32,000 nucleotides of DNA, taken from assembly GCF_000619845.1 (NCBI RefSeq), contig NZ_JHUX01000003.1, forward strand, positions 1,480,064 to 1,512,063. Direction: 5' to 3'. This DNA comes from Alkanindiges illinoisensis DSM 15370. Lineage in GTDB: Bacteria; Pseudomonadota; Gammaproteobacteria; Pseudomonadales; Moraxellaceae. The notes below the pieces were generated by a model. It searched no databases and was not told the DNA's origin. It saw only the letters and a list, made by a program, of their open reading frames with translations. A program made the position numbers and the translations under genes. Below are positions 1 to 13,930 of the stretch, in pieces (within the stretch, counting starts at the first letter, position 1; every line of letters starts with the position of its first letter).

Positions 1-1190
1 GTCACGCCACTATTGGCAAAGGTACTGATGGTAGTGGTTTTAAAGCTGGATTTGACATAGCCTGCCAGCTGGTTATCCCATTTACGTACCCAGTGGTTTT
101 CAGTAGCCAGTGATTTTACCGTATCCACCCCACTCACCGTTTCAACCAAAAAGGCCTGATTTTCCGCACCACGGGCAAATTTTTCATTCAAGCGCTGACG
201 CAGGATTGGGGTAAAAATCACTGACAGCAGCAAATAACAGGGAATTGAAGCAATCACAATTAACGTGAGCCAGCCACTGTAATAAACCATCACGGCAATA
301 AACACAAAGGAAAACACCAAATCCAGAATCAGGGTCAAGGCATTGCCGGTGAGAAAGGAGCGAATGTTTTCCAGCTCACGAATACGCGCGACCGAGTCGC
401 CAACCCGGCGTGCCTGAAAGTAATTCAGTGGCAAGGCCAGCAAATGGCGAAATACCTTGGCTCCCAGTTCCACATCAATGCGGCTGGTGGTATGGGCGAA
501 CACATAACTGCGTAACGTCGAGAGCAATACATCAAAGATAATGATCACCGTTAAGCCAATGGCAATCACATCCAGGGTGGTCAATGCCCGATGCACCAGT
601 ACCTTGTCCATGACCACCTGAAAGAACAGTGGTGTGATCAAGGCAAATAGTTGCAGCACAAAGCTGACCAGCAGTACTTCAATCAGTAGCTTGCGATACT
701 TAATCACTGAAGGAATAAACCAGGACAAGTCAAACTTGCGTAAGGCTTGAGCCAGGCTATCCTTGGTGGTGACTAAGATCAGTTTGCCCTGCCATAGCTC
801 GCCAAACTGTACAGGCGTTAACAACTGGGGCCGTCCCATACGCGGAGACTGGACCAGATACTGGTCATTTTCAATTCGCGCCAGAATAAAGAATTCTGGT
901 TCTCCATCAGGATTGGTGGTTTCTACAATGGCAGGTAATGGAATCTTGTCCAGCCGCTCAAGTGTCGTACTTACCGCCTTGGCTTTTAAATTTAAGCGCT
1001 TGGCCGCCAGCAATAACTCGGTGCTGTTAAATTGGGTATTATCCAGACCCGCTTCATGGATCACCTGCTCTGGCTCAACTGCCATGTGGTGAAAACGCGC
1101 CATCATGATCAGGCAAGCAAGGCCAGTGTCAATCCGGAGCATGGTATGAGCGGTATCGGGGGATTCTTGATTTTGGGCAACAAAAGACAT
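1..1190 (-). CDS. Type I secretion ABC transporter (HlyB/LktB/CyaB family), N-terminal ~396 aa only; gene continues past the left edge
   Basis: Absent from the ORF track because it is open to position 1. My minus-strand translation from ATG at 1190-1188 reads MSFVAQNQESPDTAHTMLRIDTGLACLIMMARFHHMAVEPEQVIHEAGL...RKFDLSWFIPSVIKYRKLLIEVLLVSFVLQLFALITPLFFQVVMDKVLVH...RIRELENIRSFLTG. That is a C39-like N-terminal domain followed by HlyB-type transmembrane helices. The C39 catalytic Cys position (DCG in bacteriocin exporters, DYG in E. coli HlyB) is Thr here (IDTGL), the inactive C39-like state typical of RTX exporters. The gene lies directly downstream of the RTX gene, as hlyB follows hlyA. Confidence 0.85.
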   Translation of the reverse strand, partial: MSFVAQNQESPDTAHTMLRIDTGLACLIMMARFHHMAVEPEQVIHEAGLDNTQFNSTELLLAAKRLNLKAKAVSTTLERLDKIPLPAIVETTNPDGEPEFFILARIENDQYLVQSPRMGRPQLLTPVQFGELWQGKLILVTTKDSLAQALRKFDLSWFIPSVIKYRKLLIEVLLVSFVLQLFALITPLFFQVVMDKVLVHRALTTLDVIAIGLTVIIIFDVLLSTLRSYVFAHTTSRIDVELGAKVFRHLLALPLNYFQARRVGDSVARIRELENIRSFLTGNALTLILDLVFSFVFIAVMVYYSGWLTLIVIASIPCYLLLSVIFTPILRQRLNEKFARGAENQAFLVETVSGVDTVKSLATENHWVRKWDNQLAGYVKSSFKTTTISTFANSGV

Positions 1191-1217
1191 GTACAGTAAA
1201 ACCTATAGACTGACCAA

Positions 1218-1254
1218 ACAATCAGGCCTTAACCATCGGTTAAGGCCTGATTGT
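1218..1254 (-). terminator. Intercistronic hairpin between the RTX gene and the ABC transporter (partial terminator/attenuator)
   Basis: Perfect 17-bp inverted repeat: acaatcaggccttaacc (1218-1234), loop atc, ggttaaggcctgattgt (1238-1254). On the minus strand it is followed only by a short TTTGG, so at most a leaky terminator. It sits in the 77-bp gap between the RTX stop (1268) and the transporter ATG (1190). Confidence 0.45.
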
Positions 1255-13114: not shown

Positions 13115-13147
13115 AATTTTTCCTATAATCTTTACTACTGAAATGTT

Positions 13148-13930
13148 TTACACTTTTAAAGATGAAATATTCCATTCGTCTAATAATCGCCAAATAGCTA
13201 AGTCTATCTCTTTCCAATGTTTTAAATTTTTACTTTCGATGCGCCACTCTACTTTAACTCCTCCAAACAACGACTCTTGTGACTCCCCTACAACCCAGTC
13301 TTTATCTCTAAAAGTAAAATAAACTCCCGAAATATTAGGATAGTCAGATTTACCAAAGCAAAGTAGGCCGTTAGTTTTTGTAAAAATATTACATTTTAAG
13401 CTATACTTGCTTGAAGAATCTTTATCGTATTTGGCTTCGTCTGATTCCTCAAAAATTCTATAAGAATGATATGTATCTGTTTTTGAACCTGTAAAGTTAA
13501 TTCTAACTTTGACCTGATCAGGATGATCTAAGCCATGTTCAGATTCGATGATTTTATCAGTCGCCTGCACAGTTGAGCCATTGAGCATCAAATTAAATTC
13601 CAACTGTTGCCCTGCGATGATAGCCACTGGTTGCATCTGTCTTGCCTGAGCTTTCGTCAACTTGGCAAACTGCTCCGGCACATAATCAACCGGAAACTGA
13701 CCCACATAATGCTCACTTTCTGGCCGATAAAATTCAGCATCATGCGGCCCTGTAGAGATATGGGTTCTTCTGGCACCTAGTTTAGTCTTGAGGATAAATT
13801 GGTCATTAAATTTCCATGTGACCACCTCACCTTCTTTGTAAGGATCAGCTTCTTTTTGACTCGACATGCAACCTCCCAACAGTATTAGTATTGTGACTAT
13901 CTTTAAATTGTTAAATCTAATAATTGTCAT
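13148..13930 (-). CDS. Predicted lipoprotein (260 aa), function unknown; first gene of the lipoprotein-RTX-T1SS gene string
   Basis: The N-terminus MTIIRFNNLKIVTILILLGGC-MSSQ has a positive n-region, a hydrophobic core and the lipobox L-G-G-C (Cys21). Residue +2 is Met, not Asp, so outer-membrane sorting is expected under the E. coli rule. The stop lies 33 nt upstream of the RTX ATG on the same strand. I recognise no family motif in the mature part. Confidence 0.7.
   Translation of the reverse strand: MTIIRFNNLKIVTILILLGGCMSSQKEADPYKEGEVVTWKFNDQFILKTKLGARRTHISTGPHDAEFYRPESEHYVGQFPVDYVPEQFAKLTKAQARQMQPVAIIAGQQLEFNLMLNGSTVQATDKIIESEHGLDHPDQVKVRINFTGSKTDTYHSYRIFEESDEAKYDKDSSSKYSLKCNIFTKTNGLLCFGKSDYPNISGVYFTFRDKDWVVGESQESLFGGVKVEWRIESKNLKHWKEIDLAIWRLLDEWNISSLKV

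Follow-up and report, generated by a model that had tools for sequence, protein, structure and literature searches.

A giant RTX protein with a FrpC-type self-processing module and its upstream lipoprotein in Alkanindiges illinoisensis: a candidate secreted effector and immunity pair

We analysed a 32,000-nucleotide (nt) stretch of DNA from the soil bacterium Alkanindiges illinoisensis DSM 15370 (contig NZ_JHUX01000003.1, positions 1,480,064 to 1,512,063), hereafter the window, which contains a type I secretion operon with the gene for a partner lipoprotein directly upstream of the gene for a giant RTX protein. On the minus strand the order is lipoprotein gene, 33-nt gap, RTX gene, 77-nt gap and exporter gene, all co-oriented. 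An earlier reading made from the letters alone (the sequence-only reading) had given this arrangement exactly and had expected a Moraxellaceae-like host; A. illinoisensis is a member of the Moraxellaceae. GroEL, TtcA, the integrase and the RTX protein encoded in the window match proteins of this species exactly. A promoter/terminator scan, whose counts were overall at chance level, returned no terminator-like hairpin in the 33-nt or the 77-nt gap. The three genes are:

13148..13930, minus strand: lipoprotein gene, 260 amino acids (aa), with a signal peptide that ends in the lipobox LLGG-C21, from the open reading frame (ORF) and its translation
1268..13114, minus strand: RTX protein gene, 3,948 aa, named 'calcium-binding protein' of A. 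illinoisensis at NCBI
1..1190, minus strand: 5' part of the gene for a HlyB-type ABC exporter of a type I secretion system (T1SS), 396 aa visible, the gene being cut by the window edge

The exporter contains Peptidase_C39 and ABC_membrane domains (Pfam) and belongs to TIGR01846, the HlyB type (NCBIfam). Its Thr22 aligns with Tyr9 of E. coli HlyB (7SGR/3ZUA), the position of the catalytic Cys in true C39 peptidases, and we therefore agree with the sequence-only reading that the C39-like domain is inactive. The hlyD and tolC genes would lie past the window edge, the visible exporter gene being the HlyB-type one that follows the RTX gene after 77 nt. The NCBI entry for the RTX protein (WP_211253596.1) has 3,919 aa, compared with 3,948 aa in the window ORF.

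Pfam searches with hidden Markov models find HemolysinCabind in 54 stretches of the RTX protein, HCBP_related nine times and He_PIG twice, the content that had been expected, and the six 90-aa repeats noted by the sequence-only reading lie at about aa 3244-3815, with the motif N[VI]ENLTLTG at aa 3328, 3417, 3516, 3606, 3696 and 3786. BapA_N-like matches (Pfam) are found inside the repeat modules, internal at aa ~2110-2182 and not N-terminal. The secretion signal of RTX/T1SS substrates is C-terminal (PMC3034196). From N- to C-terminus, the parts of the protein are:

12125..13114, minus strand: N-terminal domain (N-domain), aa 1-330, all-alpha, of an uncharacterised family with the motif WGG[SA]F[YF][YF]W; candidate effector/toxin domain
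11315..12124, minus strand: first RTX nonapeptide block, aa 331-600, with GGxGxD motifs at 361-538 (HemolysinCabind), between the N-domain and the self-processing module (SPM)
11015..11314, minus strand: pre-SPM linker, aa 601-700, with a proline-rich end (DAPPPPKKPPLRIPPIPPRPS) and DAPPPPKK at aa 680
11009..11014, minus strand: codons of Asp701-Pro702, the predicted scissile bond
10475..11014, minus strand: SPM, aa 701-880, matching PDB 6SJX/6SJW
9575..10474, minus strand: post-SPM region, aa 881-1180, conserved with the SPM-RTX proteins of three other loci (L007, L030, L032)
4010..9574, minus strand: repeated RTX and HCBP_related modules, aa 1181-3035 (Pfam HCBP_related nine times, HemolysinCabind)
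3386..4009, minus strand: two He_PIG (cadherin/Ig-like) domains, aa ~3036-3243 (Pfam E 1.5e-24)
1670..3385, minus strand: six ~90-aa repeats, aa 3244-3815, each with RTX nonapeptides and N[VI]ENLTLTG
1268..1669, minus strand: C-terminal ~130 aa and stop codon, the expected site of the T1SS secretion signal by position only

Judged by alignment, the SPM is genuine and looks intact, and all features of the SPM/clip-and-link RTX class that a sequence can reveal are present. Residues 701-860 match the solved FrpC SPM (PDB 6SJX/6SJW) at E 4e-35, with 77/160 positions (48%) identical (phmmer), and the Asp-Pro SPM proposed by the sequence-only reading is thus borne out by the comparison with FrpC. 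Asp701-Pro702, one of only four Asp-Pro dipeptides in the whole RTX protein, aligns with FrpC Asp414-Pro415 (residue 415 is Ala in the PDB construct). Three EF-hand-like Ca2+ loops (DLNNNGKIDNGSE, DANQDHIINNQD and DTNQDGISQSTE) are kept and align with the corresponding FrpC loops, which have been placed at D462-E474, D499-D511 and D521-E532 (PMC7078468). After FrpC cleavage the reactive Asp sits on the N-fragment, and the C-terminal part is separated (PMC5233953, PMC7078468). The C-terminal 3,247 aa of the window protein had been seen as adhesin cargo of a docked N-terminal fragment; this does not follow from the FrpC chemistry (PMC5233953, PMC7078468), because cleavage detaches the C-terminal part. 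SPM homologues in plant and animal pathogens were already noted in a 2010 review of RTX proteins (PMC3034196), and our SPM matches span Kingella, Eikenella, Suttonella, Francisella, Ralstonia, Aeromonas, Methylococcales and others, so that SPM proteins extend beyond Neisseria and Pasteurellaceae. The corresponding Pfam family, PF26745, is newer than the Pfam set that we scanned and is present in the precomputed annotation of relatives, for example the L007 proteins. SPMs are used in protein engineering (NeissLock), and divergent natural SPMs are therefore of practical interest.

In our searches the N-domain and the lipoprotein define two uncharacterised families, both lacking a Pfam match, that form a recurrent two-gene module. 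The lipoprotein has no family match in Pfam (E<=5 included), NCBIfam or PADLOC. Its homologues fall into 85 clusters, from Psychrobacter, Acinetobacter, Moraxella, Alkanindiges, Methylophilaceae, Methylococcaceae, Psychrobium and Colwellia. In an alignment of 47 homologues (A1), at least 90% of the sequences share M1 and C21, and the pair C180/C191 is conserved as well. The conservation of M1 and C21 makes the 260-aa start the better call; the NCBI entry (WP_051526739.1, 239 aa, 'hypothetical') starts at Met22 and loses the signal peptide and the lipobox. Methylophilaceae genomes also contain a fused double lipoprotein of ~515 aa, with two A1-family units per ORF and no RTX neighbour (L026 9926-11473, L028 9935-11449).

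By sequence search the lipoprotein could not be identified as a FrpD homologue: neither phmmer (E<=10) nor the 47-sequence A1 profile found FrpD in the PDB, and hhalign of the A1 profile against FrpD 43-271, with a query sequence verified against 5EDJ, gave a probability of 0.15% (0.25% with an enlarged profile). The A1 profile search of the PDB likewise gave no sequence-level match to Smlt3025. An AlphaFold2 (AF2) model of the lipoprotein (pLDDT 88, pTM 0.84) has beta-hairpins at the N-terminus, an antiparallel sheet of several strands and a long helix at the C-terminus. Foldseek returned a single PDB match at E<=1e-3 for this model, 6PDK, which is Smlt3025 (E 7e-4, probability 1.00, TM 0.33, identity 9%), an immunity lipoprotein published as FrpD-like (PMC6759196). 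FrpD itself (5EDF) ranks 30th, at E 0.29 and TM 0.30-0.33. The best-conserved lipoprotein positions fall in the N-terminal hairpins and the C-terminal helix, and the FrpC-binding surface of FrpD has been reported in these same elements (PMC6759196, PMC5233953). On the model, a fold-level kinship with the FrpD/Smlt3025 type is plausible, though not established.

The N-domain has no Pfam match at E<=5 and none in PADLOC. Its AF2 model (pLDDT 85, pTM 0.85) is all-alpha, and the sole low-confidence part (pLDDT <50) is a hydrophobic stretch (GLNPVALIPLLLESPLLAAALAP, aa 235-258, 12341-12412, minus strand) that, going by the model, could be flexible or act on membranes. Among 1.84 billion representative proteins, a profile search located 194 family members at E<=1e-3. 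Among the 40 representatives of at least 700 aa, 27 have three or more RTX motifs and 15 an SPM. The SPM directly follows the N-domain, as in FrpC, in P0234, P0248, P0327 and P0339 and in the shorter P0280 and P0292. Some 50 representatives, 300-700 aa long, stand alone and lack RTX repeats, and stand-alone N-domain proteins of 300-620 aa are found beside lipoprotein-type partners. A metagenomic protein of 545 aa (P0230) has the N-domain at aa 21-178 and, from aa ~289, a Hint-type module below the Pfam threshold, which may be a second self-cleaving device for N-domain release. In P0294, a 4,778-aa RHS-repeat protein, the N-domain forms the extreme C-terminus (aa 4559-4702), with YWFQQAA, SNHIA and GGWGGAFYYWD conserved. 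Its stop codon overlaps the start of a downstream gene for a 238-aa lipoprotein, which matches the A1 profile weakly (E 4e-3 among 377 ORFs; C-terminal helix, hhalign E 1e-3).

We set pieces of the window RTX protein against the ORFs in all six frames of 54 loci, first directly and then with a profile. An RTX gene that follows an A1 lipoprotein gene always starts with the N-domain (L005/L006, L007, L008, L025, L027, L030, L032, L040, L047), and only L007, L030 and L032 among these lipoprotein and RTX loci have an SPM. The RTX neighbours thus share the N-domain, and few have an SPM, from which we conclude that the lipoprotein pairs with the N-domain and that the SPM is an optional add-on. An N-domain gene adjoins the lipoprotein gene in 6/41 genome loci with enough downstream sequence; two of these six have an SPM, and 35/41 show no N-domain gene within 10 kb. 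The expected linkage of the lipoprotein to SPM-RTX genes in relatives therefore stands for the N-domain and fails for the SPM and for the orphan majority. In 6/45 loci the lipoprotein ORFs number more than one, either as tandem copies or because a frameshift has split the ORF.

An independent sample came from a metagenome scan with the motif WGG[SA]F[YF][YF]W alone, which yielded 48 N-domain loci. An upstream co-oriented ORF (150-400 aa, -60 to +400 nt) precedes the N-domain gene in 39 of them, and an SPM is present in four. Twelve of the 39 upstream ORFs are of the A1 family; most others group into six or more additional sequence clusters, and lipoboxes occur in several of these. Assigning all upstream partners to A1 failed, since jackhmmer joined only 12/44 and the rest are separate sequence families. 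At L057, the gene upstream of that for a stand-alone 493-aa N-domain protein encodes an unmistakable A1 homologue (E 1e-19, hhalign 98.8%). The pairing is seen again and again in Moraxellaceae, Methylophilaceae, Psychrobium and metagenomes, the two genes being 0-60 nt apart.

Several of these loci show unusual arrangements. In the closest relative of the window locus (L005 1-5181; lipoprotein 69% identical, N-domain ~80%), the N-domain gene is truncated at 273 aa and is accompanied by two lipoprotein paralogues, a fragment of an integrase and a membrane-anchored ORF of 289 aa that is unrelated; the locus gives the impression of a copy that has decayed or been rearranged. In another strain of A. 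illinoisensis, NFYY 23406, the A1 paralogues (37% identity) are frameshifted or tandem, and no N-domain gene lies closer than 10 kb (L049 10081-11448). On a Psychrobium chromosome (L040 7719-9750) a second lipoprotein gene and a ~375-aa ORF with weak N-domain similarity (E 3e-5) sit just upstream of the main lipoprotein and RTX pair, where modules may have been stacked. A metagenomic contig (L056 1-11179) carries four tandem copies of a pair consisting of a 579/580-aa N-domain protein and a 259-aa partner.

We favour a reading in which type I secretion exports the RTX protein as an effector, the SPM frees its toxin-like N-domain, and the lipoprotein serves that domain as immunity protein or binding partner; we give this reading an even chance of being right. 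The protein would be exported C-terminus first through the HlyB-type system. Extracellular Ca2+ would then fold the RTX, Ig-like and 90-aa-repeat regions, whose probable role is that of a carrier or binding scaffold, and would activate the SPM to cut at Asp701-Pro702. This would release a 701-aa N-terminal fragment with a reactive aspartyl anhydride end, able to link to a nearby Lys. The payload would be the N-terminal all-alpha domain of ~300 aa, a member of a widespread family that would act like the effector domains of polymorphic toxins, and the lipoprotein in the producer's envelope would be its cognate immunity protein or neutralising binder, sparing the producing cell and its kin. A polymorphic-toxin type of effector/immunity module is suggested by the occurrence of one domain on several scaffolds (RTX/T1SS, Rhs, stand-alone), by the tightly linked small lipoprotein gene, diversified into several families with many orphans and some tandem copies, and by the self-cleaving modules (SPM, possibly Hint) just downstream of the N-domain. 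In the lipoprotein itself we count as immunity-like the 35/41 orphan loci, the conserved Cys pair and Smlt3025 as the best PDB match. The predicted tight binding between the lipoprotein and the N-terminal fragment has indirect support in the conserved pairing of their genes.

Several points weigh against this reading. The reading needs a route by which a T1SS-secreted N-domain would enter the periplasm of another bacterium, and none is obvious. The N-domain has no obvious catalytic residues, its nearly invariant positions being mostly aromatic or Gly, and its model found nothing better than E 1.5 in a fold search of the PDB, so that no mechanism can be deduced for it. Nor could the N-domain be identified as a homologue of Smlt3024, the effector that belongs to Smlt3025: with the Smlt3024 sequence taken from S4 Fig of PMC6759196, hhalign gave probabilities of 0.08% and 6.8%, and phmmer with aa 4-260 gave no match at E<=10 among 150 N-domain family members. 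The TM-scores of the lipoprotein model to Smlt3025 and FrpD are only ~0.3. The link to Rhs proteins comes from one metagenomic contig, whose partner lipoprotein matches A1 weakly. The orphan lipoprotein genes could serve RTX genes elsewhere in the same genomes, as we examined 10-kb neighbourhoods. He_PIG domains and long repeats are typical of adhesins, and the RTX protein has both. Finally, anatomy, homologies and gene-linkage statistics are what our analysis establishes, and from these we infer secretion order, cleavage, binding, toxicity and target.

In its boldest form, the effector reading makes the locus a new kind of interbacterial weapon, in which a Ca2+-triggered Asp-Pro module on a T1SS RTX carrier frees a new all-alpha toxin domain and lipoproteins of the FrpD/Smlt3025 fold confer immunity. 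We put this forward tentatively, as somewhat less probable than not. The C-terminal anhydride may in that case tether the freed toxin domain covalently to its target. If this is true, FrpC-type clip-and-link proteins in general, the meningococcal one included, would be antibacterial effectors and not host-directed factors.

The strongest competitor is an adhesion bridge of the FrpD/FrpC type, in which an outer-membrane lipoprotein docks the N-fragment and Asp701 links to a Lys on another cell or surface, tethering the bacterium; the C-terminal 3,247 aa would either be shed or end up in cross-linked aggregates. The genes and the modules come in the order seen in frpDC, the SPM is real, and the lipoprotein is the conserved partner of the N-domain, with a modelled fold plausibly of the FrpD/Smlt3025 type and conserved positions in the regions reported as the FrpC-binding surface of FrpD (PMC6759196, PMC5233953); the He_PIG domains and repeats are adhesin-like too. 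The sequence-only reading, which had called the locus FrpD/FrpC-style, was right in these respects (a genuine SPM, frpDC-like order, a lipoprotein that is a conserved partner of the N-terminus), but the lipoprotein has no sequence homology to FrpD. Most lipoprotein/N-domain pairs have no SPM, which excludes covalent bridging as the core function of the module, and the RTX gene is absent at most lipoprotein loci. An N-domain at an Rhs tip with a downstream lipoprotein gene is hard to square with docking. It is this position at the tip of an Rhs toxin, with the lipoprotein gene adjacent, that leads us to prefer an effector/immunity role over the surface anchoring that had been proposed. The adhesion role of FrpC itself is unproven, and FrpC is dispensable in infant rats (PMC7078468). 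We consider the bridge unlikely.

A second adhesin reading, which we regard as quite improbable, is that of a surface-retained giant RTX protein, whose N-domain, held by a periplasmic lipoprotein, plugs the outer-membrane channel of the T1SS LapA-style until an SPM cut at high Ca2+ frees the adhesin. T1SS substrates emerge C-terminus first, so that the N-terminus is the last part out, as such a plug would have to be, and the giant size, the He_PIG domains, the 90-aa repeats and the BapA_N-like matches in the repeat modules are all in keeping with it. Those BapA_N matches are internal, however (aa ~2110-2182), and no LapG/LapD-type genes are present in the window. The RTX block at aa 331-600, which folds only with extracellular Ca2+, separates the N-domain from the SPM, and the N-domain also occurs in stand-alone proteins and at an Rhs tip, outside any T1SS context.

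Upstream of the operon lies the integrase that the sequence-only reading had placed beside it:

14512..15774, minus strand: P4-type tyrosine integrase (Arm-DNA-bind_3, Phage_int_M, Phage_integrase), 581 nt upstream of the lipoprotein gene

A RelB antitoxin / ParE toxin pair (16109-16637, plus strand; overlapping ORFs of 80 and 98 aa) adjoins the integrase; such pairs are typical island-stabilising cargo. The GC content is 0.35-0.38 over 13-18 kb of the window, compared with 0.43-0.50 in the housekeeping flank with acrB and groEL, and the low-GC stretch (13000-18000) spans the lipoprotein gene, the integrase, the toxin-antitoxin pair and an ORF-poor stretch at 16.6-18 kb. The integrase and RelB/ParE neighbours together with the low surrounding GC suggest a genomic island, the far end of which lies beyond the window. 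Scans for tRNA genes and Rfam elements found none marking an island edge or attachment site, and neither blastn nor tblastn matched the plasmid collection. A 320-aa ORF amid the housekeeping genes (25815-26777, plus strand) has no Pfam match. It is highly improbable that the operon reflects incidental adjacency, in which case a mobile island would have contributed the lipoprotein as an envelope protein of no relation, and the RTX protein would be a generic calcium-binding exoprotein with a partnerless N-domain: most A1 lipoprotein genes are indeed not beside RTX genes, and NCBI calls the lipoprotein hypothetical from a shorter start, but 39/48 independently ascertained N-domain loci have an upstream partner ORF, and such pairs, spaced 0-60 nt apart, come up repeatedly in Moraxellaceae, Methylophilaceae, Psychrobium and metagenomes.

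Among known systems, the closest in layout are FrpD/FrpC of N. meningitidis and ApxIVA of A. pleuropneumoniae, which share with the window locus a lipoprotein gene immediately upstream of a T1SS RTX gene and the module order of a non-RTX N-terminal domain, an Asp-Pro SPM, a post-SPM region and RTX repeats. The window lipoprotein has no sequence similarity to FrpD and matches its fold weakly. The window protein also differs from FrpC in the RTX block and Pro-rich linker between N-domain and SPM, because of which the released fragment would have 701 aa and not 414 aa, and in its nine added HCBP modules, two He_PIG domains and six 90-aa repeats, which go with 2.2 times the length of FrpC. What is new here is a pair of N-domain and lipoprotein families, set in an arrangement that resembles frpDC with adhesin-type modules added. 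FrpC-type clip-and-link RTX proteins have gone ~20 years without an assigned function, and the window locus offers a tractable, non-pathogenic test case.

The second comparison is with Smlt3024/Smlt3025 of Stenotrophomonas maltophilia, an effector of a type IV secretion system (X-T4SS) and its immunity lipoprotein (PMC6759196). The effector that Smlt3025 neutralises acts in the periplasm and has its homologues at the N-termini of many large RTX proteins, and FrpC/FrpD was put forward in 2019 as a T1SS effector/immunity pair (PMC6759196). As in our locus, the effector gene has the lipoprotein gene upstream of it; no PDB entry matches the model of the window lipoprotein better than Smlt3025; and the window N-domain family, like the Smlt3024 domain family, occurs at the N-termini of many RTX proteins. 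The two N-domains are nevertheless not detectably related (hhalign probability <7%, no phmmer match), the lipoprotein families are unrelated at the sequence level, and delivery differs, by T4SS with an XVIPCD signal for Smlt3024 and by T1SS with an SPM for the window protein. By sequence, the window pair belongs neither to the FrpD family nor to the Smlt3024/3025 family; its proposed way of working resembles both. The Rhs-tip occurrence and the partner-gene census provide independent support for the 2019 antibacterial-effector hypothesis, in part from the single Rhs contig.

The module resembles polymorphic toxin systems in that one domain is found at an Rhs tip, at RTX N-termini and alone, nearly always with an adjacent small partner gene, and in that the partners have diversified into several families with orphan and tandem partner genes common. 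Unlike in Rhs toxins, in the RTX and stand-alone forms the N-domain is N-terminal and the partner gene upstream, and the SPM (or possibly a Hint module) would free the domain in place of the Rhs aspartyl protease. Giant RTX proteins that act against other bacteria do exist, as the Rhizobium leguminosarum bacteriocin RzcA (439 kDa) illustrates (PMC3034196), and the window protein shares with RzcA and the MARTX toxins the build of a giant T1SS RTX protein. With MARTX toxins it further shares an internal autoprocessing domain that frees effector domains, which in MARTX is an InsP6-activated cysteine protease working inside eukaryotic cells and in the window protein is predicted to be a Ca2+-triggered Asp-Pro SPM.

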